Source of the DNA: an uncultured Anaerolineales bacterium | GTDB taxonomy: Bacteria > Chloroflexota > Anaerolineae > Anaerolineales > UBA6663 | DNA: 64,000 nt | Assembly (NCBI GenBank): GCA_937952305.1 | Contig: CALFZO010000004.1 | Span: forward strand, 3,249-67,248 | Direction of reading: 5' to 3' | Part shown: positions 4,397 to 21,213 of the stretch, piece after piece | Numbering within the stretch: position 1 is the first letter of the stretch | How the letters are laid out: every line of letters starts with the position of its first letter | Translations under genes and position numbers: made by a program | Notes under the pieces: generated by a model | What the model was told of the DNA's origin: nothing | Databases searched by the model: none | Seen by the model: the letters and a program-made list of their open reading frames with translations, nothing else

Positions 4397-5185
4397 CTAG
4401 TGGGCGGTCCAACCGCCATCGACGGTCAGGACGGCCCCGGTTACAAAGCGCGCTTCGTCAGACAAGAGATACAGGGCCGCCCAGGCGACATCTTGGGGCA
4501 CGCCCAAATCCCCAGTCAATGGTTGCAGCGCCGCCAGCCGCTGCCGAATGCCGGGATCAGACTGAGCACGCTGGCTCATCGGCGTCGCGATCAGGCCGGG
4601 GCAGATCACGTTGACGCGAATCCGATCTTTGGCATAGTAGGCCGCCATGGCGCGGCTCAGCGCAATCAGGCCCCCCTTGCTGGCTGCATACGCATGGGTG
4701 GCAAAGTCACTGTCCCCGCCCACTAGGCCCAGGACCGAGCTCAGGTTGACGATGGCACCGCCCCCGTTCTCCAGCAGTTTGGGGATGCCGTACTTGGACA
4801 CCAAGAATACGCTGCGCAGATTGACCGCCAGCACCTGATCCCAGCCGGCTTCCGTGCAGTCCGCAACCGGGCCATCCCCCCAGCGCCGGCCGCTGATCCC
4901 GGCGCCGTTGAAGATACCGTCGAGCCTGCCGAAAACGGCCGCGGCTTCGTTGACGGCGTCGCGCACAGCTGTCGCCGCCGTCAGATCGACCTCAATGAAG
5001 CGGGCGGATCCCGCCTGGGCCCGGATCTCCGCTGCTGTCTGCTCCCCGCCTTCCCGCTGGCGGTCGAGTATCACGACCTGGGCGCCGGCTGCCGCGCCCA
5101 GGAGCGCGGTTGCCCGCCCAATCCCGGAGGCGCCCCCTGTGACCACGATCGTTTTGCCCGCCAGCCGGCCTGGGCCCTCCATCAC
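4397..5185 (-). CDS. SDR-family oxidoreductase
   Basis: GKTIVVTGGASGIGRATA Rossmann motif, NGAG, and YAASKGG (YxxxK). The start lies 3 nt after the stop of the SIS gene. Confidence 0.9.
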   Translation of the reverse strand: MMEGPGRLAGKTIVVTGGASGIGRATALLGAAAGAQVVILDRQREGGEQTAAEIRAQAGSARFIEVDLTAATAVRDAVNEAAAVFGRLDGIFNGAGISGRRWGDGPVADCTEAGWDQVLAVNLRSVFLVSKYGIPKLLENGGGAIVNLSSVLGLVGGDSDFATHAYAASKGGLIALSRAMAAYYAKDRIRVNVICPGLIATPMSQRAQSDPGIRQRLAALQPLTGDLGVPQDVAWAALYLLSDEARFVTGAVLTVDGGWTAH

Positions 5186-5187
5186 CT

Positions 5188-5970
5188 TCAGATCCCTTCG
5201 CCAAAGGCGCGCCGGGCGCGGGTTCGGTAATCGTCGTAAGCCTGATCAAACACAGCCTGGGACGCTTGCTCGCCGATCAATACAGCGCTGGTCAGCACGG
5301 CCGGCGGCTGGCCGAGCCGCACCAGTTCTTCGGCGATCAGGCACTTTAAGGCGTTGACGATGACGGCATTTCCGATCGTAGACCCCGGGCCGACGGGATA
5401 GCGCAGATCGGGCACGCGCACCAGCGCATCGCCAGCCGGCGTGCCATTGTCGATGGTGACATCCGCCAGATCCGGCAGGCGCTTCCCGGAGGGATGCTTG
5501 GGAGGCGAGGCCAGGCAATGGTCCAGCGAAACTACGGCGATCAGCGGCAGGCCGCGCTCTTTCACCTGGAGGGCCATCTCAACAATCAATTCGTTGACGC
5601 CGCTGTTGGAGAAGAGGATGAAACTGTCCGGCGTGGCCAGGACAAAGTTTCGCAAAATGGGCCGGGCCAAGCCGGCCACGTGCTCGAGGTACATGGCCTG
5701 CCGCTGCCCGTTCGCGCCGACGACCAGGTTGTGAAAAGTCAGCGAGAGTTCCACCAGCGGGTAGAAGCCTGGGTAACTGCCGTGGCGGGGGAACATCTCT
5801 TCGATCGCCATGCGTGAGTGGCCAGTCCCGAACAGGTAAACCAGGCCCCGCTGCGCAATCGTGTTTGAACAGATGCTCGCCGCTCGGCTGAGGTTCTCGG
5901 ACTGGGTCGCGCGGATCCGCGCGACGATAGCCTGCGCGGCCTCAAAGTAATCGAGCCCGGATTGATACAT
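5188..5970 (-). CDS. SIS (sugar isomerase) domain protein, UPF0309-like
   Basis: GLVYLFGTGHSRMAIEEMF phosphosugar-binding type motif. The length and layout are typical of single-SIS proteins. Confidence 0.7.
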   Translation of the reverse strand: MYQSGLDYFEAAQAIVARIRATQSENLSRAASICSNTIAQRGLVYLFGTGHSRMAIEEMFPRHGSYPGFYPLVELSLTFHNLVVGANGQRQAMYLEHVAGLARPILRNFVLATPDSFILFSNSGVNELIVEMALQVKERGLPLIAVVSLDHCLASPPKHPSGKRLPDLADVTIDNGTPAGDALVRVPDLRYPVGPGSTIGNAVIVNALKCLIAEELVRLGQPPAVLTSAVLIGEQASQAVFDQAYDDYRTRARRAFGEGI

Positions 5971-6065
5971 GGCTGGTTCCTATTTTCGTCAGTTAATCCA
6001 CGCCGCGGCCGGCTGTCTAGAGGGCCGATCGCTGTCTACCGCACACCGGGCTATCGGCCGGCCGC

Positions 6066-7634
6066 TCAGGGCTGCAGCGCCATCGCGGCGACGTAATGGT
6101 CGGCGAAGCGCGCATCCTGATCCAGATCGACCGGGATGGCGCGCCGGGCCAGGGTTTCGCCCAGCGCAAAGCCTTCGTCGCTGAGGAACAGCGCTGCGCC
6201 CAGCCCGGCCCCATTGGCCGTCACCTCGACGATGTCGCGCCGGACCGGCGGCAGCAGGCCCAGCCCGAGCGCCGAGTCGACATCGATCTGGCCACCAAAA
6301 GAACCGGTCAGGATCACGCGTTGCAGGTCGGCTGCTGCCAGCCCCAGTTTGCTCATCAGGATGCCGATGGCGGCGCGGATGGCGCCCTTGGCCTTCTGCA
6401 ATTCGCGCACGTCCCACTGATTGAGGCTCAGGCCGCGGTCCCGGTCCAGGATCAGGCGCCGCCCGTCAGCCGGGTCGACGGTGAACTGGTCCGCGAAAGG
6501 CCCCGCTGACGGCGCCAGGCGCCCGCTCGCGGAGATGATGCCGGCCTGGCGAAGTTCGTAGACCAGGCTGAGCAAGCCGGAGCCGGTCAGGCCGATCGGA
6601 GGCTGATGCCCAATCGTCTCGAGGCGCAGGGTGCGGCCGTCTGGGCGGGCGCGAGTGACGGCGCCATCCACAGCGCGCGAGCCGCACGAGATGTTCACGC
6701 CTTCGAAGGCCGGGCCAGCGGCCGTCGAAGTGGTCAGGATGCTCCGGCCATCGGTGACCAGCACCTCGCCATTGGTGCCCAGGTCGACCGCCGCCATCGG
6801 GCCGGGAGCACGGTCAAAGCCAAAGTACGCGAGGCAGGCCAGGGCATCCGAGCCCACAAAGCCGCCAATCAGGGGCGGCAACGAGACCGCGACACCATCG
6901 GCGAAGATGCCCTCCATGAGGTGGCCGGCCTCGCGCACGGAGGCGCGCGTGTGCGGCTCAAAGGGCATGACCGCCAGCGAGTCAATCGGCAGGCGGGCCA
7001 GCAAGTGATGCATGGCCACATTGCCCACAATGGTCGCCCGGCTGATGCGGCTGCGCACTCGGGGAGAGAGCCGCAGGGCGTCCACCGCCTGATTGATAGA
7101 GGCCAGCGCCAGGCGGTGCAGCCGCTCCCGGTTTTCCGGGCTGGCCTGCGCGGCTTTCAGCCGGGAAATGACATCGGCCCCGTAGACCGATTGCTGGTTC
7201 AGGCTGGCGGCCCCGGCGCAGACCTCGCCGGTATCCAGCACCGTCAGGAAGGCCGCCGCCGTGGTCGACCCCAAGTCAATGGCCAGTCCCAGCGGGGAGC
7301 TGGTTTGCTTATAGCGCGCACTGCGCTGAAAGTTCTTGTTGGAATAGACCACGATCGGCGCGAGGACCACCCGCGCGTCGCCTTCCAGGCGCGCGCAGCA
7401 AGCCAGGCGGTTGTCCAGGGCTAATTCGCCGGGGCTCAGGTGGTGTCTTTCGACCGGGTCGGGCGGGGCGATCCCGGCCTCCGCCAGGACCTTGCACTTG
7501 CCGCAGGTGCCGCGCCCGGCGCAGGGCTGCTCCAGGGGCAGCCCGGTCCGGGCGACGACCTCGCCGATCAGGGCGCCGGCCGGCGCCTCAATGATCTCGG
7601 TTTTGTCCCCGTAAATGACGGTCAAGACAGGCAT
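6066..7634 (-). CDS. corrinoid reductive activase (N-terminal 2Fe-2S ferredoxin plus ASKHA ATPase, RACo/DUF4445 type)
   Basis: CAGRGTCGKCKV plant-type 2Fe-2S motif about 40 aa from the N-terminus. The large C-terminal region carries ASKHA-like DLGTNGE/DLGSTT motifs. The ATG at 7634 (M19, MPVLTVIYGD) is preferred over the TTG at 7688, which would overlap the upstream gene. Confidence 0.85.
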   Translation of the reverse strand: MPVLTVIYGDKTEIIEAPAGALIGEVVARTGLPLEQPCAGRGTCGKCKVLAEAGIAPPDPVERHHLSPGELALDNRLACCARLEGDARVVLAPIVVYSNKNFQRSARYKQTSSPLGLAIDLGSTTAAAFLTVLDTGEVCAGAASLNQQSVYGADVISRLKAAQASPENRERLHRLALASINQAVDALRLSPRVRSRISRATIVGNVAMHHLLARLPIDSLAVMPFEPHTRASVREAGHLMEGIFADGVAVSLPPLIGGFVGSDALACLAYFGFDRAPGPMAAVDLGTNGEVLVTDGRSILTTSTAAGPAFEGVNISCGSRAVDGAVTRARPDGRTLRLETIGHQPPIGLTGSGLLSLVYELRQAGIISASGRLAPSAGPFADQFTVDPADGRRLILDRDRGLSLNQWDVRELQKAKGAIRAAIGILMSKLGLAAADLQRVILTGSFGGQIDVDSALGLGLLPPVRRDIVEVTANGAGLGAALFLSDEGFALGETLARRAIPVDLDQDARFADHYVAAMALQP

Positions 7635-7671
7635 GCGTCGCGAAGATTCCAACGAGCGGCCGGCCGCGGCC

Positions 7672-8391
7672 TCAATCGGTCCGGACAAAGAGCGCCTGTT
7701 CGAGCAGGCCCCCCGGCGGGATCAGCAGGAAATCCTCGCCCGGCTGCGCGCCGTCACTCTGGACCAACTCGATCAGGCGCAGCAGGTAGCCGTCCGAGCC
7801 GAGCAGCTCCTCATAGCGCATGTCCCAGCGGGCGCAGTACGCGGCCACCGCCTCAGCCTGAGACCGGTAGCGCTCCAGCTCATCGCCATCGCGCGCCACC
7901 ATGGCCAGCCGCCGGTACTTGTGATACTGGACCTCCATGAGCCAGGCGGCTTTTTCGGCACCATACTTCTCCGCCAGTTTCTGGCTTTCCCGCAGAGGGT
8001 TGGTGCCCGCTTCCAGCCAGCCTTTCGAGAGATAGTAGGTGCCGGGTTCCCGGTCCATCTCGCGCCGATAGGCCTGATACGAGCCCAGCAGGATGGCGAT
8101 GCAGTCATCGGTGCGCGGAATGAGCAAAAAGTGCTGGCCGGCGCGGATGTCGCTCAGCCCATTGCCGCACAGGCCATAGCCCAACACGATCAGGCTGGGC
8201 TGATCCACGCTGTCGATGGCGGCCTGAATGGTCTGCCGCAGGTTCTTGGGTACGGCATGCAGGCCATAGTCAAAGAAGGTTAGGGCCGGCGGCGCGCCGG
8301 CCCAGGCCTGCAGCAGGTTTTCCAGCCAGTGCTGAAAAACACGGCAGGCCAGGATCACCACCGGGCGGCCAGGCGGCGGCAGGGCGTTCAC
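7672..8391 (-). CDS. DUF1638 domain protein (function unknown, typically linked to corrinoid methyltransferases)
   Basis: The PVVILACRVFQHWL... N-terminus and size fit DUF1638 as I recall it. Its GTG start overlaps the upstream stop as GTGA (8388-8391), which implies translational coupling. Confidence 0.65.
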   Translation of the reverse strand: MNALPPPGRPVVILACRVFQHWLENLLQAWAGAPPALTFFDYGLHAVPKNLRQTIQAAIDSVDQPSLIVLGYGLCGNGLSDIRAGQHFLLIPRTDDCIAILLGSYQAYRREMDREPGTYYLSKGWLEAGTNPLRESQKLAEKYGAEKAAWLMEVQYHKYRRLAMVARDGDELERYRSQAEAVAAYCARWDMRYEELLGSDGYLLRLIELVQSDGAQPGEDFLLIPPGGLLEQALFVRTD

Positions 8392-9263
8392 ACGGCCACC
8401 TTGGCCTTCTCCCGTTTGCGGTACGCCTTGATCCAGCGCATGCCATAGTCGTCGCGGCCCATGGCTAGGTCCGCGGCCAGAATGGCGGTGTTGACCTCGG
8501 CCAGCAGCGGATTGGTGATCGGGCAGGTCAGACCGGCGTGGATGGCCATTCCCAGGAAGGTCGCGTTGATGTATTTCCGGTCCGGCAATCCAAACGAAAT
8601 ATTGCTGGCACCCATCGAAATATTAACGCCGAACTCTTTGACGACGAGGGCGATCGTATCCAGAGTGACCCGGCCGGCCCCGCTCTCGGCGCTGAGGGCC
8701 ATGGCCAGCGGATCGATCACCACATCGTCGAGGGCGAGGCCGGCCGCCGCGGCCCGCTCAATGATCGCGGCGGCGACCGCGAACCGCGCCTCCGCTGTCT
8801 TGGGGATGCCGCCCTCGCCCATGCACAGGCCGATCACGGCCGCGCCGTACTCCCTGGCCAGCGGCAGGACGGCGTCCAGGGAGCGTTTTTCGCCGTTGAC
8901 TGAGTTGATCAGCGCCTTGCCCTCGTAGATCGAGAGCGCCGCCCCGAGCGCTTTCGGATTCGCGGTGTCAAAGCACAACGGCACATCCACGACCGCTTGG
9001 ACGTTGCGGATGATCTGCTGCATTAAGGCCGGCTCGTCGGCGTCAGGCACGCCGGCGTTGATATCGAGAACGACGGCGCCGGCCGCGACCTGCTCAACGG
9101 CGTCTTTGCGGACCACTTCAAAATTCCCCGCCTGCAGCGCTTCCAGGACAGCCTTGCGCCCGGTTGGATTGATGCGCTCGCCAATAATGACGGTCGGGCG
9201 ATCCCGCTGGATGGTGACCGTCTGGGATTTGGACCTGAGCACAGTGTTACAGTGTTGAGTCAT
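8388..9263 (-). CDS. methyltetrahydrofolate:corrinoid methyltransferase (pterin-binding DHPS-like barrel, MT-II)
   Basis: TVIIGERINPTGRKAVLEAL...VLDINAGVP and NISFGLP motifs are typical of the MetH pterin-binding / AcsE / MtrH-like fold. Confidence 0.85.
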   Translation of the reverse strand: MTQHCNTVLRSKSQTVTIQRDRPTVIIGERINPTGRKAVLEALQAGNFEVVRKDAVEQVAAGAVVLDINAGVPDADEPALMQQIIRNVQAVVDVPLCFDTANPKALGAALSIYEGKALINSVNGEKRSLDAVLPLAREYGAAVIGLCMGEGGIPKTAEARFAVAAAIIERAAAAGLALDDVVIDPLAMALSAESGAGRVTLDTIALVVKEFGVNISMGASNISFGLPDRKYINATFLGMAIHAGLTCPITNPLLAEVNTAILAADLAMGRDDYGMRWIKAYRKREKAKVAV

Positions 9264-9329
9264 GACATTCGCCTTGCTGGTGGACGCGGAAACACCCGGC
9301 GCCAGGGGCTGGCGGGGTGCGCCCAGCCA

Positions 9330-9956
9330 CTACGCAATCAACTGCCGGACGATCCGCGTGGCGACGGAGGCGTCCGCCGCGTAGGCGTCGGCGCCGATTT
9401 TCCGGGCGTAAGCGTCGGTCACCGGCGCCCCGCCGATCACTACCTTGACGTGCTCGCGCACGCCCGCGGCCCGCAGAGCCTCCATCGTCTTCAGCATGCT
9501 CGCCATGGTCGTCGTCAGCAAGGCCGACATCCCGATGACCTGCGCGCCGTTCTGGACAGCCTGAACGAACTTTTCGGGCGGGACATCCGTCCCCAGGTCC
9601 TCCACCTCGAAGCCGGCGCCTTCCAGCATCATCACCACCAGGTTCTTGCCGATGTCGTGCAGGTCACCTTGGACGGTGCCGATGGCCACCTTTCCCGCCG
9701 ACTGGACGTCCGTGGCCGCCAGAGCCGGCTTGAGCAGCTTCAGGCCGGTCTGCATGGCCCGGGCCGCGAAGAGCATCTCAGGCACGAAGATCTCGCCCTC
9801 CTCGAAGAGGCGGCCGACCTTGGCCATCGCCTGAATGAGGGCCTCATTGAGGATCCGGTCAGCGGGGATCCCCTGTTCGAGGGCCGAGCGAACGCCGGCC
9901 TCAACCGCCGCCATTTCGCCCTCAACTACGTTCTGGAAGATTTGCTCGAGAGTCAT
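9330..9956 (-). CDS. corrinoid (cobalamin)-binding protein
   Basis: B12-binding cap helix bundle followed by GTVQGDLHDIGKNLV (DxHxxG base-off/His-on motif) and MSALLTTT. At 208 aa it is typical of methyltransferase-cognate corrinoid proteins. Confidence 0.92.
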   Translation of the reverse strand: MTLEQIFQNVVEGEMAAVEAGVRSALEQGIPADRILNEALIQAMAKVGRLFEEGEIFVPEMLFAARAMQTGLKLLKPALAATDVQSAGKVAIGTVQGDLHDIGKNLVVMMLEGAGFEVEDLGTDVPPEKFVQAVQNGAQVIGMSALLTTTMASMLKTMEALRAAGVREHVKVVIGGAPVTDAYARKIGADAYAADASVATRIVRQLIA

Positions 9957-9984: not shown

Positions 9985-12738
9985 TCATTGGGTTGGGCGC
10001 TGGGCCGGCAACGCCTTCAGGCCTTCCAGGATGTTGCGCCTGACGTCGGCCGGAATGAGGTGGCGGTCAATCGCCGCAATCTGGTTCAAGGAGTAATCCC
10101 GCAACCAGAAAAGTTTGGAATAATCGGCGACCTGCTGGAGCTCGCGCATCAGCACGGCACGGGACTCCGGCCAGGCCAGCAGGTCTCGTAAGCTCACGTC
10201 CGCATCCAAGCCGGGCGTGAAACTCGACCAGCGCGCGTCGTACGCAGCGGCCAACCGATAGCCGGCCGTGATCCGGAACCGGGCGCGCTGGCGAATGTCC
10301 TGGGCTGAACTGCCAATCTGCACCTCGAACTCGCCTGGCTCGGCGATCCAAGCCTTCTGGCGGGGGTCATAGTAGGCCAGTTCCCGCGGCGAGAGGCTAA
10401 ACCCAACTTCCCGGGCTTCGCCCGGAGCCAGCTGGATTTTCTCGAAACCTTTCAGCTCCTTGGGCGGCCGGACCAGGCTTGACACGCTGTCGTGAACGTA
10501 GAGCTGCACCACGTCGCTCCCAGCCCGGGCACCGGTATTGGTCACCCTCAGGGACACCTGAACGGCCAACGTGTCAGCCAGCTCTTTGACTTCGACCTCA
10601 AGGGTGGAGTAATCGAAGGTGGTATAGGACAGGCCATGGCCAAACGGGAACAGAGGGGCCATCCGCTTCGCGTCGTAGTAGCGGTAGCCGACAAATATCC
10701 CCTCCCCATAGCGAACGGTGCCGTTCTCACCCGGGTAGTTCAGGAAAGCCGGCGTCTCCTGCAAGCTCACGGGGAAGGTGACCGGCAGCTTGCCAGACGG
10801 GTTGACCTGCCCCAGGAGTACATCCACGATGGCGTGGCCTTGTTCCTGGCCGGTATACCAGGCTTGGATAACCGCCCCAACTTGGCCGATCCATCGGCTC
10901 ATATCGACCGGTGCGCCGCTGACGACGACCACCACCGTGTTCCGATTCGCCTGGGCAATCTGCTGGATCAGGGCCTCTTGCTGACCGGTGAGGTTCAGAT
11001 TGGGACGGTCACGCCCCTCAGTCTCACGGCCATCGGCCAGGCCGACACACACCACCGCGACCTCGGCCTCCGCCGCGGCTGCGGCCGCGCTAGCCATCTC
11101 ATCGACCGAACCCGGCAGCCGGCAGCCAACCCTGAAGCTGTAGTTATGCTCACAGTTGCGCTGATAATGGATGCACAAGCGATACGGTGTGCCGGCCGTC
11201 AACTGGATCGCTCCGGTCGCTGCGGCTTCATACTGCGTTGATGGGACCGCCCGGCCGACCCCCTGATCGATCAGCACCTGATCGTCAACCGCCAGCCGGC
11301 CCAGGCCATTGTTCGTCAGGCCAAACACATACTCGCCGGTCGTCGGCGGGACGAAATAACCCGTCCACCGGGCAGAAAAATCCACGTTGGCCAGTTGCCC
11401 CGGGATTGGCGCCCCCTTGCTGAGTCGAATTTCCTGCGGCCGAAAGCAATGGACGGGAGCGCCGCCCAGGGTGGGCTGCCCAAAGTACTCACAGTTGAAA
11501 CCGCGTTCGGTCAGGGCCTCGTCGGCGTAGACGTGCTCTGCCGTCAGGCCGGGCAGCGAACCATCGGCGCTGCAGCCTGGTTGGTAGCGGATAGAAATCC
11601 GGTCACCGCACCGCTCCGTCAGGCTTTGCAGCACGGACACCGCATAGTGCGGGTTGACCCGCGCACTGCCGTGGCCCTGGATCACCGGATCTTTGGCCAG
11701 CGGTCCAATGAGGGCGATCGACCGTATCGCGCTGGCCTCCAGCGGCAACTGCCCGTTGGAGTTTTTCAACAGGACGATGGCCTCACCCGCGGCCAGACGC
11801 GCCAGCTCCGCCTGGCCGCGCTGCGAGAAGTCGGCCGCCGCCGATGCCGCGGAGGGCTGGCGGTCGGAGGCGCGCAGGACCAGCGTCAGGATCCGGCGCG
11901 CCCGTTCATCCAGCGCCTGTTCCGGTACCTCGCCCCGGGTCACCGCCTCAAAGAGCTCCTGGCGGGCGGCGGCCTTGCCGCCCGGCATTTCGAGATCCAG
12001 GCCGACCTGGGCGGAAGCGAGGCGGTCATAGACCGCATACCAATCGGAGATCACGGGGCCGTCGAAGCCCCATTCGGTCTTCAGCACCGCGCTCAGGAAT
12101 TCCTGGCTTTCGGACAGGGAAGTGCCGTTGACCTTGTTATACGAGCACATCAGGCTCCAGGCGCGGGCCTCTGTGACGGCGGATTCAAACGCCGGCAGGT
12201 AGATCTCGCGCAAAGCCCGTTCATCCACTTCCGAATTCAGCGTCAGGCGCTCAAACTCGGAGTTGTTGCAGAGAAAGTGCTTGACACACGCCCCCACGCC
12301 CTGGCTCTGCAAGCCCTCGATGTAGGCGGCCGCCAAACGGGCGGATAACCAGGGGTCTTCCGAGAAGTACTCGAAGTTGCGCCCGCACAGCGGCGAACGC
12401 TGGATGTTCACGGCCGGCCCCAGCAAGACATGGCAGCCCTGGGCCTGCGTCTCGGCGCCTAAAGCCGCCCCGACCTGCCGGATCAACGCCTGGTTCCAGG
12501 TCGCGGCCAGTGCGCTACCGGTCGGGAAAGCGGTGGCCGGCCGGCTGTCGATGGCCCGCAGTTCATTGCCGACGTATCGGACGCCATGCGGCCCATCGAC
12601 CACGCGGATGGCGGGAATCCCATGTTGATCGAACGCCTGCGTGTGCCAAAAATCAGCGCCGATGCAGAGCGCCACCTTCTCCGGCAGGCTCAGCGCGCGC
12701 ACCAACTGGTTGACTTTCTCGCCGACCTCCACAACCAT
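9985..12738 (-). CDS. glycoside hydrolase family 3 beta-glucosidase with PA14 insert; cytoplasmic
   Basis: GH3 N-domain with the ISDWYAV nucleophile region. PA14-like insert (FSARWTGYFVPPTTGEYVFG). C-terminal Fn3-like domain (LKGFEKIQLAPGE). No signal peptide. Confidence 0.9.
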   Translation of the reverse strand: MVVEVGEKVNQLVRALSLPEKVALCIGADFWHTQAFDQHGIPAIRVVDGPHGVRYVGNELRAIDSRPATAFPTGSALAATWNQALIRQVGAALGAETQAQGCHVLLGPAVNIQRSPLCGRNFEYFSEDPWLSARLAAAYIEGLQSQGVGACVKHFLCNNSEFERLTLNSEVDERALREIYLPAFESAVTEARAWSLMCSYNKVNGTSLSESQEFLSAVLKTEWGFDGPVISDWYAVYDRLASAQVGLDLEMPGGKAAARQELFEAVTRGEVPEQALDERARRILTLVLRASDRQPSAASAAADFSQRGQAELARLAAGEAIVLLKNSNGQLPLEASAIRSIALIGPLAKDPVIQGHGSARVNPHYAVSVLQSLTERCGDRISIRYQPGCSADGSLPGLTAEHVYADEALTERGFNCEYFGQPTLGGAPVHCFRPQEIRLSKGAPIPGQLANVDFSARWTGYFVPPTTGEYVFGLTNNGLGRLAVDDQVLIDQGVGRAVPSTQYEAAATGAIQLTAGTPYRLCIHYQRNCEHNYSFRVGCRLPGSVDEMASAAAAAAEAEVAVVCVGLADGRETEGRDRPNLNLTGQQEALIQQIAQANRNTVVVVVSGAPVDMSRWIGQVGAVIQAWYTGQEQGHAIVDVLLGQVNPSGKLPVTFPVSLQETPAFLNYPGENGTVRYGEGIFVGYRYYDAKRMAPLFPFGHGLSYTTFDYSTLEVEVKELADTLAVQVSLRVTNTGARAGSDVVQLYVHDSVSSLVRPPKELKGFEKIQLAPGEAREVGFSLSPRELAYYDPRQKAWIAEPGEFEVQIGSSAQDIRQRARFRITAGYRLAAAYDARWSSFTPGLDADVSLRDLLAWPESRAVLMRELQQVADYSKLFWLRDYSLNQIAAIDRHLIPADVRRNILEGLKALPAQRPTQ

Positions 12739-13974: not shown

Positions 13975-15072
13975 CTAGACGTAGCCCTGGTACTGCCTGC
14001 CCTCATCCAACATGGCCAGGTAGTTCCTGACCGGGATGTAATTCGCCACGCTGTTGCCCGTCCCCAAGGCCCACCCGCCGCCCGGCGCACAGGCCTCGAT
14101 CACCTTGCGCGTATACGCCCGCACCTCGTCTTCAGTCGAGCGGGTGAGCGTGTCCACATCCAGGCCGCCCAGGATAGCCACCCGCTGTCCCCACCTGGCC
14201 TTGGCCTCGGCCACAGGCAGGATAACGTCCTCGAACGAATGCTTGGCGTCAATGCCCACCCCATCGATCAGTTCGTCCATGATCGTCTGCAGGTTGCCGC
14301 AGGAATGGAGCAGGAACGGCAGGTGGTGGGCGTGGGTGATCTCCACCAGCTTCTTTTGCCAGGGGAAGACGTACTGCCGCAGATACTTCGGAGAAATCAG
14401 AGGACCAGACTTGAAGCCCATGTCATCGCCCAGCCACATCGCCCCGATCCCCGGCCTCTCCGCAACGGCCGACCAAATTCCGACCAGCATCTCGCCCACC
14501 TTGGTCGCCACGGCTTCCACCAGGGCTGGATCTTCGCGCAGGGCAAACGACAGGTTCATCATGCCCATCAGCCACATCATGTTTTCCAGCTGGCCGCCCG
14601 GCCCCATGAAAATGATCTTCATGCCCTCCGGCAGGCGTTTGGCGACGTACTCCAGACTATGAAAGTCAAGGTCCGCCACTGTGGGCCAGCGATAGCGCTC
14701 GAAATCATCCCAGTTCGCGATGACCCCGGTCGCTTCATTCACCCAGGCCCGGTTGCCCTTCGACTGTTCCCCAGCGGTGTCCTTAATCTCCTGGCGGTTC
14801 AAAAGGAACACGAGCTGGCAGGGCACCGTGATGTAGTCATAGCCAGCTTCCAGCCAAAAGCGCAGGATCCGGTCAAAGGCATATTCCTGGGCGGCGTAAT
14901 CGATCGGGACGCCGATCGCGTTGGGGATCACGGGGATAGGCTCGCCAATCACAGCCGCCATAATCGGGTTGTCGGCGAACAGTTCGACAAACGGCAGGCG
15001 GTCCGGCTGGCCTTGGCGCCGGAGCACTTTTTCCAGCCGCGCGAAGTCGGGAGTGGGCGGATTGTGGATCAT
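13975..15072 (-). CDS. uroporphyrinogen decarboxylase-family methyltransferase (MtaA/MtbA-like, candidate MT-I)
   Basis: LLHSCGN (H-x-C) plus a downstream Cys in IEACAPGGG, which matches the zinc motif pattern of MtaA-type enzymes. An AAGGAGA RBS is present. Confidence 0.75.
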   Translation of the reverse strand: MIHNPPTPDFARLEKVLRRQGQPDRLPFVELFADNPIMAAVIGEPIPVIPNAIGVPIDYAAQEYAFDRILRFWLEAGYDYITVPCQLVFLLNRQEIKDTAGEQSKGNRAWVNEATGVIANWDDFERYRWPTVADLDFHSLEYVAKRLPEGMKIIFMGPGGQLENMMWLMGMMNLSFALREDPALVEAVATKVGEMLVGIWSAVAERPGIGAMWLGDDMGFKSGPLISPKYLRQYVFPWQKKLVEITHAHHLPFLLHSCGNLQTIMDELIDGVGIDAKHSFEDVILPVAEAKARWGQRVAILGGLDVDTLTRSTEDEVRAYTRKVIEACAPGGGWALGTGNSVANYIPVRNYLAMLDEGRQYQGYV

Positions 15073-15087: not shown

Positions 15088-15933
15088 TCAGCCTTTGATA
15101 CCGGACAGAGCGGTTCCTTGCACAAAATACCGCTGCAAGACGATGACCAGGATGATCACGGGGATAACCGACATCGCCCCGCCCGCGATCTGCAGGTAGC
15201 GGCTGACGCCCATATACCCCTGCAGCGCCAGCACAGCCAGATTGATCGTCCAATTGGCACGATCGCTGAGCACGATCAGCGGCCAGAGCAGGTCATTCCA
15301 GTGGTACAGAAACGCGAAGGCGCCGAGCGTGGCCAGCGCTGGCCCGCACAGCGGCAGCGCGACCGTGCGGTAGATCATGAACTCCGAGGCCCCGTCCATT
15401 CTGGCCGCATCAATGAGGTCGTCCGGGATGTCCAGCATGAACTGGCGCATCATGAAAACGCCAAAGGCCGTGACGAAATGCGGCGCCATCACGCCCAGCA
15501 GCGTGTTGTTGATATCGATCTGGTTGATCATCCAGAACCACGGGATGATGTTGATAAACAGCGGGATCGTCATGCTGCCCAGCAGCAGCAAAAAGACCAG
15601 GTCCCGGCCGGGAAACCGGTATTTGGCGAAGCCAAAGCCGGCCAGGGAGCTGGTGAACAGCTGCACCAGGGTCACACCACCGGCCACGATCAGGGTGTTG
15701 AGGTAGGGTCGCAGACCCTGAATTCGCCCCCAGGCTACCTGGAAGTTTTGCCACTGGGGAATAGCTGGCAGAAACCGCCCCGGGATAGCGGCCGATTCGG
15801 CCTCCGTCATCAGGGCCATCGAGATCATGTAGAAATACGGGAAAGTGATCACCGTGACCACGACGATCATGATCAGGTAAATCAGGAGCAGATTCGCTTG
15901 CGACTGCAGGCGCGGCCGGTTCAACCTTGTCAT
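15088..15933 (-). CDS. carbohydrate ABC transporter permease (MalG-like)
   Basis: Six-TM pattern with EAA-type loop AARMDGASEFMIYRTVALP. The track ORF (to 16143) overlaps the upstream permease. The internal ATG at 15933 (M71, MTRLNRPRLQ) fits the 19-nt intergenic gap. Confidence 0.88.
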   Translation of the reverse strand: MTRLNRPRLQSQANLLLIYLIMIVVVTVITFPYFYMISMALMTEAESAAIPGRFLPAIPQWQNFQVAWGRIQGLRPYLNTLIVAGGVTLVQLFTSSLAGFGFAKYRFPGRDLVFLLLLGSMTIPLFINIIPWFWMINQIDINNTLLGVMAPHFVTAFGVFMMRQFMLDIPDDLIDAARMDGASEFMIYRTVALPLCGPALATLGAFAFLYHWNDLLWPLIVLSDRANWTINLAVLALQGYMGVSRYLQIAGGAMSVIPVIILVIVLQRYFVQGTALSGIKG

Positions 15934-15952: not shown

Positions 15953-16918
15953 TCAAGAGCGCTGTTCGCGCAACAGGCGCAATTGAATGACGGATAGCGC
16001 CATGAGAATGGCGAACAGGATAAAAGCCATGGCGGCTCCCTGGCCAGCCCGCCCATTGACAAACACGGTTTTGTACATCTGCAAAACCACCGTGTTCGTC
16101 GCGTCGGCCGGCCCGCCATCGGTGCTGGAGATAACCAGGTCAAACACCTGCAGGCCGCTGATCGTGCTCATCACCGTCACGAACGCAATCACCGGCGTCA
16201 GCTGGGGCAGCGTGATGTACCAGAACTGCTGCCAGCCGTTGGCGCCATCGATACTGGCCGCTTCCGCGTACTCTTCCGGGATCCCTTGCAGACCCGCCAG
16301 GAAGACGATGGCGTAATAGCCGACAAATTGGTACGTCCCCATGATGATCACGGCGATCAGGGCTGTATCCGGGTTGGTCATCCAGCCCACCGCCGGGAAA
16401 CCCAGGAACCCGGTTATTGTGTTCAGGATCCCGAAGTCTTTGTGAAACATGTTCGCCCACATGTGGCCCAGAACGACGGGCGAGGTGGCCATGGGCAGGA
16501 AGAGGGCGACCCGCCAAAAGCGCAGGCCTTTGAGTTTCGGGTAGTTCATCAGCATGGCCAGCGCCAGGCCGATCACCACATTGCCGATCACCCGGGCCAC
16601 GGCGTAGTATCCAGAATTGATCAGGGACGGGAGAAACCGCTTGTCGAGCGTCAGCAGAAATTCGTAGTTTCGCCAGCCGACCCACTTGGCTTCGGTCAGG
16701 CTGGCCAGAGGATTCCAGCTGTGCAGGCTGATCCAAAAACCAAACAGCAGCGGGCCCAGGATCACGATCAGCAAGAAGAGGGTCACCGGCAGGACAAAGA
16801 GAAAGCCCCACCGCTCGCGCCTCTGCGCGATGGAGATTCTGCGACCGGGCCGTGGTTGGTTTGGGGCGACGGCTTCACGCCCGGCCAGGGGGTTCACGGT
16901 CGTTCCATTTGTTGGCAT
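15953..16918 (-). CDS. carbohydrate ABC transporter permease (MalF-like)
   Basis: EAA-type loop EAASIDGANGWQQFWYITLP and a multi-TM profile. Confidence 0.88.
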   Translation of the reverse strand: MPTNGTTVNPLAGREAVAPNQPRPGRRISIAQRRERWGFLFVLPVTLFLLIVILGPLLFGFWISLHSWNPLASLTEAKWVGWRNYEFLLTLDKRFLPSLINSGYYAVARVIGNVVIGLALAMLMNYPKLKGLRFWRVALFLPMATSPVVLGHMWANMFHKDFGILNTITGFLGFPAVGWMTNPDTALIAVIIMGTYQFVGYYAIVFLAGLQGIPEEYAEAASIDGANGWQQFWYITLPQLTPVIAFVTVMSTISGLQVFDLVISSTDGGPADATNTVVLQMYKTVFVNGRAGQGAAMAFILFAILMALSVIQLRLLREQRS

Positions 16919-17016: not shown

Positions 17017-18378
17017 TCACGGCATCTGCAGCAACGCATCCACTTGTTCGGCGGCGTCGTTGAGCGCCTCTTCTGGTGTTTTCTTGAGGAACCAGGCGTT
17101 CTCTAGTTCGACATTAATGATGTTGACGGCCTCTTCATACTGCGGGAAGGCCAGGGGCGCCCTGGCGTAACTCTGCGCCTCCACAAAAGCCGGGAACACG
17201 TCGGTGGAGAACACGTCCTTCATCGCCTCGAGGTCGCCGAACCGCGCCGGCATCACCGAAGCGATATCGTAGTAGAACTGCGCGCAGCGCGTTGGCTTGC
17301 CTTCGCCCAGGGTTTCCTGGGTAAACCAGCGGATGAAGTCCCAGGCCGCCTCTTTATTGGGCGATTTCTCATTGACGAAGATGAACCAGGAGTACACGAT
17401 CGCCCCGGACTCCTTGCCGTTGCCATGCGGAACAGGCGCCGAGCCGAATGCGGCTGGATCATTGTACGTGGTCAGATAGAACCGCACCCAGTTGGGCAGA
17501 ACCGTAATCGCGACGCGATCGGTGTACCAATCGGTGTAGGTCAACTCCGGATTGAAGGCTCCGGCCTGGACGAGGTCGGTCATCAGGGTGAGCACTTCCA
17601 CGCCTTCAGGGCTGTTGAAGGCCGATTTCGACATATCCTCGGCGAAGATATCCCCCCCGTTCGAATACAGCAGTGACGCAAACGGCAGGTACTCCGAGTT
17701 CAGGTTGCCCACCCACTCCGAATAGCCGTATTGAATGGTGTTGCCCTCGGCATCCTTCTTGGTCAGCTTGAGGGCGTACTCCTTGAGCTCTGCCAGGGTT
17801 TCCGGCGGGCGCGAATAGCCGGCCTCCGCGAGCATCGCTTTGTTGTACAGCATGACGGTCGTGTTGGCGTCCATCGGCACGCCGTGTATCTTGCCATCCC
17901 AGGTCACCGCGTCGATGACGCCCTGCGGGTAGTTCTTCTGCACATCGGCCACGATGTCCGCCGGCACCTCCGACAGGATCCCGCTTTGGGCCAGGTTGCC
18001 CACCCACCAGGCCGGCAGCTGATACAAGTCCGGCGGGTTATCCCCCAACTGATCGGTCGCAACGCGCGCCTGCAAATCCGCGAAGGCTGTCGAAATCTGC
18101 TCGACGGTTACATTCGGGTGCAGTTGGTTGTACTCGGCCAGATACGTTTCCAGGCCGGCATGCCAGGTTTCATTGACCAGGTGGTTGCTGATGCTGAGTT
18201 TGACCGGCGCCGGCGGCTGGGTGGGACCCGCGGCCTGGGTCGGCTCCGGCGCGTTGGTATTGGCCGGCGCGCTGGTGGGGGTGGCTGCCGGCGCGCAACC
18301 GGCGAGCAATAGAGCGGCGACGAGAATCAGCTTCCCCTGGGGGAAGAACATCCGCATCAGGTGGTTTCGCTTCGACAT
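17017..18378 (-). CDS. extracellular solute-binding protein (family 1, sugar/oligosaccharide), lipoprotein
   Basis: Lipobox-like LLLAGCAPA after a hydrophobic N-terminus, then a Thr/Pro/Ala linker. It lies upstream of the two CUT1-type permeases. Confidence 0.88.
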   Translation of the reverse strand: MSKRNHLMRMFFPQGKLILVAALLLAGCAPAATPTSAPANTNAPEPTQAAGPTQPPAPVKLSISNHLVNETWHAGLETYLAEYNQLHPNVTVEQISTAFADLQARVATDQLGDNPPDLYQLPAWWVGNLAQSGILSEVPADIVADVQKNYPQGVIDAVTWDGKIHGVPMDANTTVMLYNKAMLAEAGYSRPPETLAELKEYALKLTKKDAEGNTIQYGYSEWVGNLNSEYLPFASLLYSNGGDIFAEDMSKSAFNSPEGVEVLTLMTDLVQAGAFNPELTYTDWYTDRVAITVLPNWVRFYLTTYNDPAAFGSAPVPHGNGKESGAIVYSWFIFVNEKSPNKEAAWDFIRWFTQETLGEGKPTRCAQFYYDIASVMPARFGDLEAMKDVFSTDVFPAFVEAQSYARAPLAFPQYEEAVNIINVELENAWFLKKTPEEALNDAAEQVDALLQMP

Positions 18379-18771
18379 CTTGCTCCTCCAAGTTTGTCAT
18401 CTGACAGGCAAAGATCGACCGCGTGACGGTGGTGCGCTCCACTTGGTTCAAGGGCGTCTGGTTGTGAGCACCTCCTATTTCGCTTAGGCGGCTGGCTAGG
18501 TGGGTGGACAGGTTGCCGACCTAGCCCGTTCCCGATTGGTTGGCATTCAGGCGCTTCAAGGGCACGACTTCCCCAGGGTGCAGTCAGCGGCTCCTGCGCG
18601 GCCAAACTTGACCTGCCCGCCTCGGAAACATCGCGGGTTACCCCGACAACCAAACGTTCAGGTCAGCCCGCTCTGGCTCCGGCCACAAGGGAGGCCGTCT
18701 CCACTGTTAGCACCATGACCTTGCCGACCCCTCATCTGCGGCCTTCTAGCACAGTCAGGCCACGACTGTAA

Positions 18772-18787
18772 ATTCAAAATTTTGAAT
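18772..18787. promoter_or_regulatory. perfect 16-bp palindrome ATTCAAAATTTTGAAT, candidate operator
   Basis: Read directly from the sequence. It lies just downstream of the predicted -10 of the transporter-operon promoter. The half-site ATTCAAAAT recurs at 18836-18844 and 2963-2971. Confidence 0.5.
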
Positions 18788-18790
18788 ACA

Positions 18791-18818
18791 ATAATAACAA
18801 AAACACAAGAACAGTCAA
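18791..18818 (-). promoter_or_regulatory. promoter candidate for the SBP/permease operon (TTGACT-16-TGtTATTAT)
   Basis: On the minus strand, the -35 TTGACT is at 18818-18813 and the extended -10 TGtTATTAT ends at 18791. It sits in an AT-rich island within a GC-rich genome. Confidence 0.45.
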
Positions 18819-18924
18819 GATATCACCCAATAAATATTCAAAATGCCGTCTCAAAACCGTGTCTTGGCACGCGCTCGTTACCCCAGTCTTCATTCAGGCT
18901 CTGCCCCCTGGCTAATGCGTCCGC

Positions 18925-20085
18925 CTAATAGGCACCTGCGGTCTGGGCCAATTCCATTGCGATCCGGAGGTTCTCGACCGGGGTGCCGCGCGGAGTCGTA
19001 TCGGCGCTCCCCAAAAGCACGCCCGGGTTACCTTTGACAGCTTGGATCAATTTCGCGACTGTGTCCGTGAAGGTCTGTCGATCAGGGTCGATGAAGGTAG
19101 TTGGGTCAATGCCGCCGATCACCACTTTCCCGCTCAACTGGGCAGCGGCTTGATCCAGGGGCATATCGCCTGTCGGTGACGGGGCGATATCCGCCACGCC
19201 GGCGAACCTAGCCCCGCTGATATCCGGCATAAAGACCTTGAGCTTGCCGCACATATGCACGAGGTGGATCTTCCCGGCTTGCGTCAAGATGTCAGCATAC
19301 TCGTTCAAGCATGGCAAGCAGTATTGCCGGAAGACCTTGGGCGACAACAGCGTGCTGGAGGTGTTCTCGTATTGAATGACGACGCGGGCCGGCGAGTTGG
19401 CCAGAACCTGCTCGGTATAGCGCTTCATAGCGGCGTGCAGTTTGGCCAGTATGTCTTCCACCTCGGAACGGTAGTCTGCCAGCAGGTAATAGGTGTTCTG
19501 CAAACCCCACACCATTTCGATCAGATACATGAGGGGAGTATTCATCAAGCTGACTGTGGCCAGGCCATCCTCGCCCAACTCCTGGTTGATTCGGCGATAT
19601 GCGGTTGGGTCGGGTGTGTAGGTGGTGCCGCTCAGGTGGTCAACAGCGAAGTGAAAGACCCGCAACTCATCGCCGTTAGTGACCAGGTGCTTGAGAGGGT
19701 GAGGGATCCAGCCGACTTCACCCGTGAAGCCCCAGGTGCCTACCAGCTTCCCGACCGGCGTGCGGAGGGTTTCGGTCAGAACGCCATCGACGGTTTCCGA
19801 GGTGATCTGCACAGTGGAATCGAACGGCCCGAGATAATCCAGATATGTCGCGCGGCGTTCACGCGGGTCGCTGGCCGGGACATGCCGCAGCAGAATGTCG
19901 CACCCTAAGGCCCGGCTGGCGGCGAGCATGCCAGCGGCATAGGCATAGCCGCTGGATTGCACTGTTTTCGGGATCGAGGCTGGCATGTCCTTGAGCGTAT
20001 AGACATCGATCAGAGGGACGAAAGGGAGACGGTCCACTGGCCTTCTTTCGAGCGCGGCTAGGATCCGCTGCCGGCCGGTCATCAT
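18925..20085 (-). CDS. uroporphyrinogen decarboxylase-family protein (candidate MT-I paralogue)
   Basis: The N-terminus RQRILAALERRPVDRLPFVP is typical of UroD/MtaA-family proteins. It has LVHMCGK (H-x-C), but no Cys follows downstream. A GGGAG RBS is present. Confidence 0.75.
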   Translation of the reverse strand: MMTGRQRILAALERRPVDRLPFVPLIDVYTLKDMPASIPKTVQSSGYAYAAGMLAASRALGCDILLRHVPASDPRERRATYLDYLGPFDSTVQITSETVDGVLTETLRTPVGKLVGTWGFTGEVGWIPHPLKHLVTNGDELRVFHFAVDHLSGTTYTPDPTAYRRINQELGEDGLATVSLMNTPLMYLIEMVWGLQNTYYLLADYRSEVEDILAKLHAAMKRYTEQVLANSPARVVIQYENTSSTLLSPKVFRQYCLPCLNEYADILTQAGKIHLVHMCGKLKVFMPDISGARFAGVADIAPSPTGDMPLDQAAAQLSGKVVIGGIDPTTFIDPDRQTFTDTVAKLIQAVKGNPGVLLGSADTTPRGTPVENLRIAMELAQTAGAY

Positions 20086-20118
20086 GTTTGGATTACTCCC
20101 GGTTCCCGTGGCGGCGGT

Positions 20119-21141
20119 CTAGCCGATCGGCCGCGTCGAAGAGCGGACGATCAACTCAACCGGCAAGATCTTTCGCACCGGCATCTGAGCCTCTTGTGAG
20201 AAGTGCTCCAGCAGCGCTTGCGTGGCCAGTTTGCCTAACTCAGTCACTGGTTGAAAAATGGTGGACAAGGGTGGGGTTGAGGTGCTGGAAAAACTGAGCC
20301 CGTCGAAGCCCATCACGGCCACATCGTCCGGCACCCGGAGCCCTCTCTCCTGGAGGATCTTCAGGACACTCACCGCTCGGTTGTCGTTGAAGGCGAAGAT
20401 GGCCGTGGGTGGCTCGGGCATTGCCAGCAGGCTGCTGATCGCCTCGCGGATGCCGGCGGGATCATCGGAGGTGTGCCGGAGCAGCCGCTCGTCAAAAGCA
20501 ATGCCGCGCTCCGTCAGGGCTTGCTGATAGCCGGCCAACCGGTCAGAGTTCTCGGGGTCGAGCGAGACGCGGCCAATGTAAGCAATGCGGCGATGGCCGG
20601 CGTCCAGCAGGTGCAGGGTGGCCAGGCGGCCGCCGCCAGCATTGTCAGCCGCGACAAAGGAGACCTGGGGATCTTCGACCCGCTGGCTGACCACAACGAA
20701 GGGCATTTCCTGTTGGGTGAGCATGTTGATCTGACCCGTCAGGTCAACGCCGCCAGCCATCAGGATGATGCCATCTACTTCTTTGGATTGGCAAATGCGC
20801 AACAGGCGATCCGGCTGGGCTGCCGAGGCCAGGGTATACAGCACCAAGTTGTAGTCGGCGATCTCTGCCGCATTGGCCGCTCCGCGCAGCTCAGCGAAGT
20901 AGAACTCGCTTTTCTGTTGAGTTTCAGTTCGCGACAGGCAATAGACCACGCCAATTCTGCGCGTTTCTTTGCGCCGCAGGTTTCGCGCTGCGGCATCCGG
21001 AAAATAGCCTAACGCCTTGGCAGCGGCATGAACCTGCTGCTTCGTGCGTTCAGAGATATCCCCGTAATCGTTCAAGGCCTTGGATACCGTAGACACTGAT
21101 AGGCCCAAGTGGTCTGCCAAGTCCTTGATCGTGATCGCCAT
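20119..21141 (-). CDS. LacI-family transcriptional regulator
   Basis: N-terminal HTH ITIKDLADHLGLSVSTVSKALN and a periplasmic-binding-protein-like C-terminal domain. Confidence 0.93.
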   Translation of the reverse strand: MAITIKDLADHLGLSVSTVSKALNDYGDISERTKQQVHAAAKALGYFPDAAARNLRRKETRRIGVVYCLSRTETQQKSEFYFAELRGAANAAEIADYNLVLYTLASAAQPDRLLRICQSKEVDGIILMAGGVDLTGQINMLTQQEMPFVVVSQRVEDPQVSFVAADNAGGGRLATLHLLDAGHRRIAYIGRVSLDPENSDRLAGYQQALTERGIAFDERLLRHTSDDPAGIREAISSLLAMPEPPTAIFAFNDNRAVSVLKILQERGLRVPDDVAVMGFDGLSFSSTSTPPLSTIFQPVTELGKLATQALLEHFSQEAQMPVRKILPVELIVRSSTRPIG

Positions 21142-21151
21142 CGTGGCTTCT

Positions 21152-21179
21152 CTAAAACGTTTTAGCTAAATCGATTTAG
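21152..21179. promoter_or_regulatory. two abutting 14-bp LacI-type palindromic operators (CTAAAACGTTTTAG and CTAAATCGATTTAG)
   Basis: Both are perfect palindromes with a central CG, read directly from the sequence. They lie 11-38 nt upstream of the lacI-family start codon. Confidence 0.7.
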
Positions 21180-21183
21180 TAAG

Positions 21184-21213
21184 AAGTTAGCACGATTCCA
21201 TCCTTCGAGTCAA
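21184..21213 (-). promoter_or_regulatory. promoter candidate for the lacI-headed operon (TTGACT-18-TGcTAACTT)
   Basis: On the minus strand, the -35 is at 21213-21208 and the extended -10 ends at 21184. The predicted TSS falls inside the first operator. Confidence 0.45.

Follow-up and report, generated by a model that had tools for sequence, protein, structure and literature searches.

A candidate corrinoid methyl-transfer system within a glycoside import and hydrolysis locus of an uncultured Anaerolineales bacterium

Introduction

Why would a bacterium encode a complete corrinoid (B12) methyl-transfer set among the genes with which it imports and hydrolyzes a glycoside? The question is raised by a 17-kb block of 14 minus-strand genes in the 64-kb stretch of DNA analyzed here (the window), which is part of an 87-kb contig of an uncultured Anaerolineales bacterium (Chloroflexota) from a bioreactor-sludge metagenome (ENA ERZ936873, run SRR1506987). 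An earlier note on this DNA had described the block as a corrinoid methyl-transfer module built into a LacI-controlled operon for glycoside import and hydrolysis, and had known of no characterized case of such an arrangement. The open-access literature likewise gave us no corrinoid methyltransferase set inside a glycoside import and hydrolysis locus. We found in it neither a report of corrinoid-dependent sugar demethylation nor a description of the anoxic removal of O-methyl groups from sugars or glycosides in sludge, sediments, or guts.

O-methyl groups on sugars and glycosides hinder ordinary catabolism. Examples are the 4-O-methyl-glucuronate in xylan, the methylated sugars found in glycans of algae, cyanobacteria, and mycobacteria, and plant glucosides that bear methoxy groups. 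To our knowledge, the only characterized sugar demethylases are O2-dependent P450s. Here, we propose that the locus couples the uptake and cytoplasmic breakdown of a methylated glycoside to an O2-independent, corrinoid-dependent demethylation that hands the methyl group on to tetrahydrofolate (THF), a reading whose chances we judge to be about even. The anatomy of the block is solid, and independent recurrences support it; from these we infer function and substrate.

Results

The order and the families of the 14 genes were as the earlier note had given them (ORF listing, Pfam and NCBIfam scans): a LacI-family regulator, the uroporphyrinogen decarboxylase (UroD)-fold protein U1, a solute-binding protein (SBP), two permeases, the UroD-fold proteins U2 and U3, a glycoside hydrolase of family 3 (GH3), a corrinoid protein, a THF methyltransferase, a DUF1638 protein, a reductive activase, a SIS-domain protein, and a short-chain dehydrogenase/reductase (SDR). 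Thirteen of them matched a profile of the expected family, and only U3 (12839-13963) matched no Pfam or NCBIfam model.

The corrinoid protein (9330-9956) consists of a B12-binding_2 cap (PF02607) and a B12-binding domain (PF02310) with an intact DxHxxG motif (D98-L-H-D-I-G103). Its best NCBIfam match is MtgC-like, with 211 bits against a cut-off of 370. It is followed by the pterin-binding methyl-THF:corrinoid methyltransferase (MT-II; 8388-9263; PF00809), which scored 305.8 bits with NF005719 (cut-off 259), by the DUF1638 protein (7672-8391), recognized in the Pfam scan, and by an ATP-dependent reductive activase of the RACo/RamA type (6066-7634, with a start possibly as far as 7688). The activase is composed of Fer2, RACo_middle, and RACo_C_ter domains, and has both the cysteines of the [2Fe-2S] domain (C56, C62, C65, and C97) and an ASKHA domain. 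The corrinoid protein, MT-II, and the activase thus all have the features expected of a corrinoid system, with their motifs intact. Fitness data from mutants, together with phylogenetic co-occurrence, have connected DUF1638 with the RamA-like reactivation of corrinoids, and a DUF1638 protein was co-induced with RamA on methylated osmolytes (PMC12478193; bioRxiv 10.1101/192971).

Within the block, U1, U2, and U3 are the sole candidates for a substrate methyltransferase. Pfam scans detected no homocysteine-binding domain in the block and no match to the MttB-superfamily MtgB (PF06253) in the 14 genes, and MtaB (PF12176) was found neither in the block nor among the genes called elsewhere in the window. 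With a candidate substrate:corrinoid methyltransferase (MT-I) included, the four-part corrinoid set is complete and embedded in the import and hydrolysis locus, as had been claimed.

On the carbohydrate side, the block encodes an importer of the CUT1 type, identified by an SBP_bac_1 lipoprotein with the lipobox LAGC (17017-18378) and two BPD_transp_1 permeases (15953-16897 and 15088-15933). The closest solved relatives of the lipoprotein are trehalose/maltose- and maltodextrin-binding proteins. As the earlier note had observed, no ATPase gene is found at the locus. All ATPases of ATP-binding cassette (ABC) transporters called in the window belong to Liv-type, DrrA-type, or other unrelated systems, placing the cognate ATPase outside both the locus and the called genes of the window. 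The GH3 beta-glucosidase (9985-12738) lacks a signal peptide and has the N- and C-terminal domains, the Fn3-like domain, and the SDW nucleophile motif of its family, with a PA14 insert at residues 449-527. Its best solved relatives are the beta-glucosidases 8j9f, 7ms2, and 3abz, and it most resembles intracellular beta-glucosidases, including the PA14-bearing Kluyveromyces enzyme; every NCBIfam equivalog scored under its cut-off. The block ends with a SIS_2/UPF0309 phosphosugar-binding protein (5188-5970), from the family of the GlcNAc-6-phosphate dehydratase NagS (SCO4393), and the SDR (4397-5185). An FGGY sugar kinase (21648-23165, plus strand) lies divergent from lacI and possibly belongs to the same regulon. 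Judged by their families, the SIS protein, the SDR, and the kinase point to a phosphosugar processing of the released sugar.

The three UroD-fold proteins differ in how they can be recognized. U1 (18925-20085) and U2 (13975-15072) exceed the gathering score of PF01208 and keep an HxC motif, and the association of their homologues with corrinoid genes is recurrent, though not general; both are candidate MT-I proteins. U1 has H277-M-C279-G, invariant in its family and aligned to the MtaA zinc ligands, and no downstream cysteine. In U2, H256-S-C258-G aligns with the HICG zinc motif of MtaA, and H256 and C258 are invariant in the U2 family; the third MtaA cysteine aligns with N340, and C328 is invariant. 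None of the three proteins is HemE, in agreement with the earlier assignment: TIGR01464 gave 23 bits for U1, against a cut-off of 303, and no match for U2 and U3. By their profile scores, U1 and U2 fall outside both HemE and the curated MtaA family.

U3, a protein of 374 residues, is a UroD-fold protein by its fold. Its sequence had no match in Pfam and NCBIfam even at E = 10, a profile search against the PDB returned no meaningful match, hhalign with the U2 family gave a probability of only 9%, and BLASTP with U1 and U2 aligned no more than a shared "ISPxxFxxxxLP" patch. The AlphaFold2 model, built on 23 homologues, had a pLDDT of 90.4 and a pTM of 0.88. Foldseek matched it to HemE (6w2o) and to Methanosarcina MtaA (4ay7/4ay8) with E values of about 1e-8, TM scores of 0.6-0.67, and 10-13% identity; uroporphyrinogen decarboxylases and Methanosarcina MtaA were its only significant PDB matches. 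Thus, of the three proteins that had been called UroD-fold, U1 and U2 are so by sequence and U3 by fold alone. The stronger description of all three as UroD-type MT-I proteins needs revision: U1 and U2, with their HxC motif, score far under the MtaA/CmuA cut-off, and U3 belongs to a separate orphan family with an HxD motif (HLDG, where U1 and U2 have His-x-Cys-Gly). We regard U3 as a candidate corrinoid-dependent methyltransferase, either an MT-I or MtaA-like.

Clustering at 50% identity divides the U3 family (E <= 1e-10) into about 2,000 clusters. It occurs in at least 584 GTDB species genomes from Chloroflexota, Spirochaetota, Planctomycetota, Armatimonadota, Bathyarchaeia, and other, mostly uncultured, phyla. 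Nearly all members are annotated as hypothetical, and some JGI annotations call them methionine synthase. Four residues of the family, P87, D240, H271, and D273, do not vary, and two more, W118 and H280, hardly do. The invariance of H271, D273, Q294, and W295 across 80 genome loci is partly circular, as the retrieval patterns covered these motifs; independent support comes from the homologue set found with a word index and from residues outside the patterns (P87, D240, W118, and H280). We considered whether U3 could be the "MtgB" O-demethylase described as specific to Bathyarchaeia (PMC10989822), and rejected this assignment because that protein has about 300 residues and is restricted to Bathyarchaeia. 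One family member of 1025 residues (P0396) has the U3 domain fused to a C-terminal region of 660 residues without a Pfam or PDB sequence match.

Parts of the block recur in other genomes. The closest U3 homologue (60% identity) lies in the order corrinoid protein (54% identical to that of the window), U3, GH1, and carboxylesterase, with a LacI gene nearby. Another (59%) is found in the order UroD-UroD-SBP5-Opp ABC-UroD-U3-AP_endonuc_2, syntenic with LacI-SBP5-Opp ABC-U3-UroD in a Chloroflexia metagenome-assembled genome (MAG). The latter operon, which includes two permeases and two ATPases, is shared by two sources from the Chloroflexota, the Chloroflexia MAG (L009, 2488-12272) and a JGI metagenome contig (L088, 1-12338), with permeases 59-64% identical and one ATPase 77% identical, and no corrinoid genes are located within 10 kb of it. 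U3 homologues are also found in the orders ROK-GH4-U3-MttB fragment, ABC-GH4-GFO-U3, ABC-U3-GH31 (Bipolaricaulota), GH-like-U3-GH20 (a Bathyarchaeon), GH38-GH2-U3-U2 (an Oscillospiraceae MAG), and GH13-U3-epimerase-GH2-MtaB-corrinoid protein-SBP (a Neomarinimicrobiota MAG, L070).

A U2 homologue of 63% identity from a Chloroflexota MAG stands in the order UroD-GHMP kinase-corrinoid protein (55%)-AXE1-GH38-U2-BadF/G ATPase-GH30. The surroundings of U1 homologues are of another kind. Many of those with 55-58% identity carry an SCP2 lipid-binding domain as a fusion at the C terminus, with a total length of 519-546 residues, and one such fusion gene sits among thiolase, ChsH2, MaoC, and HpaB-like genes and a GH94. 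A further U1 homologue (59%) has a pterin-binding MT-II two genes upstream, with an IS200-like ORF in between, and CoA-transferases downstream.

Four archaeal MAGs, which bear the labels Brockarchaeota, Thermoproteota, Nitrososphaerota, and "Thaumarchaeota", have U3 next to, and divergent from, a RACo activase gene that comes after mtaB (PF12176, E about 1e-170). U3 is located at about 10.0-11.1 kb in three of these loci (L071, L079, and L080) and at 4007-5122 in the fourth (L069), and in two of the four an MtaC-like corrinoid protein is encoded 2-5 kb away. Brockarchaeota have been reported to lack MtaA (PMC8065059), making U3 a candidate for the missing methyltransferase of Brockarchaeota methylotrophy. 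The arrangement of mtaB, activase, and U3 strengthens the case for corrinoid dependence of the U3 family. By the same token, U3 might act as a second methyltransferase of the MtaA kind and not as an MT-I.

We surveyed 80 species-level U3 loci in a seed-based BLAST census, in which all counts are lower bounds. At least 14 loci contained sugar-type ABC importers, 15 contained PF01208 paralogues, and 5 contained glycoside hydrolases. Among the 125 immediate U3 neighbors in the 80 species genomes, URO-D was the commonest Pfam family (4/125), with RACo at 2/125, revealing no simple conserved operon; this tally covers the 25 commonest families, so that glycoside hydrolase families found once each fall outside it. 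The association of U3 with carbohydrate or corrinoid genes is recurrent and extends across phyla, and it is not universal.

Two further arrangements were seen next to U3. In three Anaerolineae MAGs, a DUF2298 membrane protein of about 810 residues begins 9-12 nt after U3 and is thus a conserved partner (L011, 7258-9744; L013, 4811-7246; L026, 980-3403). In a Chloroflexia MAG (L003, 7341-9541), the genes ahead of U3 encode a MerR/B12-binding regulator resembling CarH and a protein with a lycopene cyclase domain, which probably reflects an unrelated light-regulated control of carotenoids.

From lacI to the SDR gene, the intergenic gaps are 33, 546, 119, 19, 15, 11, 100, 28, 66, -4, 37, 95, and 2 nt. 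The two long gaps given in the earlier note, 100 nt and about 545 nt (546 nt here), were found, but the gaps between SBP and permease (119 nt), activase and SIS (95 nt), and corrinoid protein and MT-II (66 nt), and one of 37 nt, also exceed the 35 nt said to bound the others, and the block is somewhat looser than that note had it. The junctions between permease and U2 (15 nt) and between U2 and U3 (11 nt) are tight.

The LacI-family regulator (20119-21141), with a LacI helix-turn-helix domain and Peripla_BP_1/3, is preceded by two tandem perfect 14-bp LacI-type palindromes, CTAAAACGTTTTAG and CTAAATCGATTTAG (21152-21179), located 11 nt upstream of the lacI start codon. They are the only perfect LacI-type matches in the 64-kb window and are probable LacI operators. 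The best sigma70-like match in the locus (TTGACT-16-TATTAT, 18818 to 18791) lies in the 546-nt intergenic region between the U1 and SBP genes (18379-18924, minus strand), which also includes a leader of about 400 nt. Right after this promoter-like site lies a perfect 16-bp palindrome, ATTCAAAATTTTGAAT (18772-18787), unrelated to the LacI-type palindromes. A copy with three mismatches (2963-2978) is found upstream of the gene for a YhfZ-type regulator (3171-4133, plus strand), which is convergent with the SDR gene, and ATTCAAAATTTTGAAT may be the operator of a second regulator.

No Rfam match was obtained in the leader or the 546-nt gap even at E = 1, cobalamin riboswitches included, and the folding of the leader was no better than that of shuffled sequence (z = -0.36). 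Terminator-like sites were absent from every intergenic gap of the block. Because the 546-nt gap has none, transcription may read through from lacI-U1 into the genes from SBP to SDR. The description as a LacI-controlled operon is therefore supported for lacI-U1, where the probable operators are, and not for the SBP-to-SDR genes, which have their own promoter-like site and a different palindrome. These signals indicate two or more promoters and possibly two regulators.

The same contig, or identical proteins, is recorded in the ENA, JGI, NCBI, and Logan collections of the sludge metagenome, which makes it unlikely that one assembler alone produced the block as an artefact. The cluster proteins have their best homologues in Anaerolineae and other Chloroflexota MAGs. 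As the nearest relatives of these proteins are 60-71% identical and none is closer, the source organism has no close sequenced relative. Just past the YhfZ gene, a ROK-family protein and a PF12831 FAD-dependent oxidoreductase (670-2958, minus strand) lengthen the sugar-related island. A c-di-GMP-I-GGC riboswitch aptamer (RF03167; 44331-44424, plus strand; 70.8 bits against a gathering score of 59) is the sole Rfam match within the window.

Discussion

How could these genes work together? We propose that the SBP lipoprotein and the two permeases would import a di- or oligosaccharide-like glycoside with the help of a shared ATPase encoded elsewhere, and that GH3 would cleave its beta-glucosidic bond in the cytoplasm. 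The UroD-fold proteins, of which U1 and U2 carry a conserved HxC metal motif, would take the methyl group or groups off the substrate and load them onto the Co(I) corrinoid protein, and the pterin-binding MT-II would hand them to THF. The activase, with its [2Fe-2S] and ASKHA domains, and DUF1638 would re-reduce oxidized cofactor at the expense of ATP. The SIS protein, the SDR, and probably the divergent FGGY kinase would process the released sugar. LacI might repress lacI-U1 by binding to the two operators, and the SBP-to-SDR genes would be transcribed from their own promoter, possibly under another regulator. The chemistry has precedents: attack of Co(I) on an aliphatic methyl-oxygen bond in the zinc-dependent methanol:corrinoid methyltransferase MtaB, and attack on aryl methyl ethers in the anaerobic O-demethylases. 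Which way the methyl group flows, what the substrate is, whether the genes are co-transcribed, and what each UroD-fold protein does are matters of inference from this arrangement.

The other loci back the connection between carbohydrates and corrinoid methyl transfer because homologues of the corrinoid protein, U2, and U3 adjoin glycoside hydrolases, esterases, and sugar-type ABC importers elsewhere. The contexts of U2 and U3 suggest a carbohydrate substrate. Those of U1, with SCP2 fusions, CoA-transferases, and thiolases, suggest a hydrophobic or aromatic methoxy group.

Several observations weigh against demethylation of a glycoside by this locus. The earlier note had proposed conservation of the neighborhood as a check; parts of the block recur as described, but among more than 90 related loci compared, the full arrangement is seen only on this contig. 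In the census, corrinoid-system genes lie within 10 kb in 5 of the 80 U3 loci and any sugar-related gene in 28, and the U3 neighbors are mostly unrelated, with heterogeneous close partners on the same strand. The MtaA-type zinc site (His-x-Cys plus a downstream Cys) is incomplete in U1 and U2, neither of which has a cysteine at the position aligned with the third one of MtaA, and is absent from U3, whose family has no conserved cysteine at all. The MtaA/CmuA model TIGR01463 (cut-off 235 bits) gave 54 bits for U2, 44 bits for U1, and no match for U3. No LacI-type operator precedes the SBP gene, even when up to three mismatches are allowed, and the window shows no downstream C1 genes. Composition points in the same direction. 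The GC content at third codon positions (GC3) of the genes at 0.6-23 kb is 0.74-0.88, compared with 0.88-0.95 in the housekeeping genes of the remaining window, and the overall GC content is 0.63 at 600-23200 against 0.70 at 23200-64000. With its lower values, the sugar and corrinoid region may be a compositional island, and the difference suggests that it was acquired horizontally or is of mosaic origin; the block may be a mosaic put together recently.

Such an origin would suit a different explanation, in which two unrelated modules merely lie side by side. The UroD-fold proteins would then be corrinoid-free, sugar-modifying TIM-barrel enzymes, such as decarboxylases or hydrolases, at the service of the importer and GH3, and the corrinoid protein, MT-II, DUF1638, and the activase would serve elsewhere, for instance as a split methionine-synthase or cofactor-repair hub. 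The lower GC3 fits this picture, as do the operons of LacI, ABC importer, U3, and UroD without corrinoid genes and the absence of corrinoid genes from the vicinity of most U3 and U2 homologues; moreover, the four proteins in question are exactly the hub of split MetH and glycine betaine demethylation. We nevertheless consider it unlikely, since the corrinoid module would be left with neither another substrate methyltransferase nor a homocysteine-binding domain in the block, and since it is placed between GH3 and SIS/SDR on the same strand. In addition, at least eight independent loci, spread over distant phyla, have corrinoid proteins, MtaB, activases, or MT-II adjoining a homologue of U1, U2, or U3.

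The methyl group could also flow in reverse, from methyl-THF through MT-II to the corrinoid protein, with the UroD-fold proteins, and U3 especially, acting like MtaA or MetH on an acceptor, perhaps a thiol, a cofactor, or a molecule derived from a sugar. We rate this somewhat lower still. Biosynthetic methylation has no evident use for an importer and a glycosidase, and the context of import, GH3, kinase, SIS, and SDR is catabolic. The thiol-alkylating zinc sites of MtaA, MetE, and MetH are cysteine-rich, and because U3 lacks a conserved cysteine, its motifs argue against a thiol acceptor. What speaks for reverse flow is the company of U3 with MtaB and corrinoid protein genes in the four archaeal MAGs and the Neomarinimicrobiota MAG. 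Because U3, beside the activase, sits where MtaA is expected in the archaeal four, it may be a second, MtaA-like MT-II rather than an MT-I; the reported lack of MtaA in Brockarchaeota (PMC8065059), the methionine synthase annotations at JGI, and the first genetic linkage of the DUF1638/RamA pair to methionine synthase (PMC12478193; bioRxiv 10.1101/192971) are in line with this. Finally, the methyl group might leave a methyl glycoside or methyl ester as methanol, with the corrinoid system merely scavenging it. MtaB co-occurs with U3 in five loci and esterases flank homologous loci, yet the block contains no esterase, and MtaB (PF12176) is found neither in it nor among the called window genes, making this scenario very improbable.

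If the demethylation reading is true, the route would be the O2-free counterpart of the P450 sugar demethylases, operating in anaerobic bacteria and archaea and feeding methyl-THF. The wider proposal, which combines an anaerobic corrinoid route for O-demethylation of carbohydrates or glycosides with U3 as a new methyltransferase family invisible to Pfam and as the missing MtaA of Brockarchaeota, is more speculative, and we put it forward as doubtful in its entirety. The block ties "hypothetical" UroD-like genes, which lie beside sugar-type ABC importers in 14 of the 80 loci (Chloroflexota, Spirochaetota, and others), to a complete corrinoid kit, and makes the hypothesis of an anaerobic methyl-group salvage directly testable by experiment. 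It also exposes U3 as a large unannotated enzyme family and a candidate for the gap in Brockarchaeota methylotrophy.

How does the locus compare with known systems? By its profile matches and gene content, it is none of HemE, curated MtaA/CmuA, a type 1 mlp cluster, or MtgBCD. Functionally, it resembles anaerobic O-demethylase and methylotrophic methyltransferase systems. With the anaerobic aryl O-demethylases (Odm of Acetobacterium dehalogenans, Mtv of Moorella, those of Desulfitobacterium, and MtoABCD of Methermicoccus and Archaeoglobus; PMC8630106, PMC8359953), it shares a UroD-superfamily MT-I, here a candidate, a corrinoid protein with the DxHxxG motif, an MT-II that forms methyl-THF, and an activase that depends on ATP, as well as the proposed conservation of the methyl group as methyl-THF. 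Unlike these systems, it interleaves a CUT1 importer, a GH3 beta-glucosidase, SIS/SDR genes, and a DUF1638 gene, has three very divergent UroD-fold proteins, one of them invisible to Pfam, and is hosted by a member of the Chloroflexota rather than an acetogen or methanogen.

The MtgBCD glycine-betaine system and split methionine-synthase hub (PMC12478193; bioRxiv 10.1101/192971) has in common with the locus the MtgC-like corrinoid match, the pterin MT-II, and the pair of RamA-like activase and DUF1638, but the locus lacks an MttB-superfamily MtgB and a homocysteine methyltransferase domain, and its corrinoid protein falls under the MtgC cut-off. Type 1 mlp clusters likewise combine several MtaA-like UroD proteins with a corrinoid protein and a bacterial-type activase (Kountz and Balskus, PMC10418091). 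They are typically devoid of a THF methyltransferase, are found in Firmicutes in 73% of cases, and have been proposed to act in methyl-sulfur or methyl-selenium metabolism (PMC10418091). We rejected an assignment of the locus to this type (Mlp2 plus Mlp3) because of its THF MT-II, and its carbohydrate context differs as well.

The fold of U3 is shared with MtaA (4ay7) of the MtaABC methanol system, and archaeal U3 homologues adjoin mtaB, an mtaC-like corrinoid protein, and an activase. U3 differs from MtaA, to which it is 10-13% identical, by an HxD motif instead of HxC and by the absence of any conserved cysteine, and no MtaB is called in the window. In marine polysaccharide-utilization loci, a cytochrome P450 demethylates 6-O-methyl-D-galactose in a reaction that needs O2 and releases formaldehyde (PMC6292453). 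These loci follow the same logic as the one proposed here, with the demethylating enzyme placed in a glycan-utilization locus since the methyl group blocks catabolism of the sugar. The present system, by comparison, would be O2-free, would rely on an unrelated enzyme family, and would conserve the methyl group as methyl-THF.

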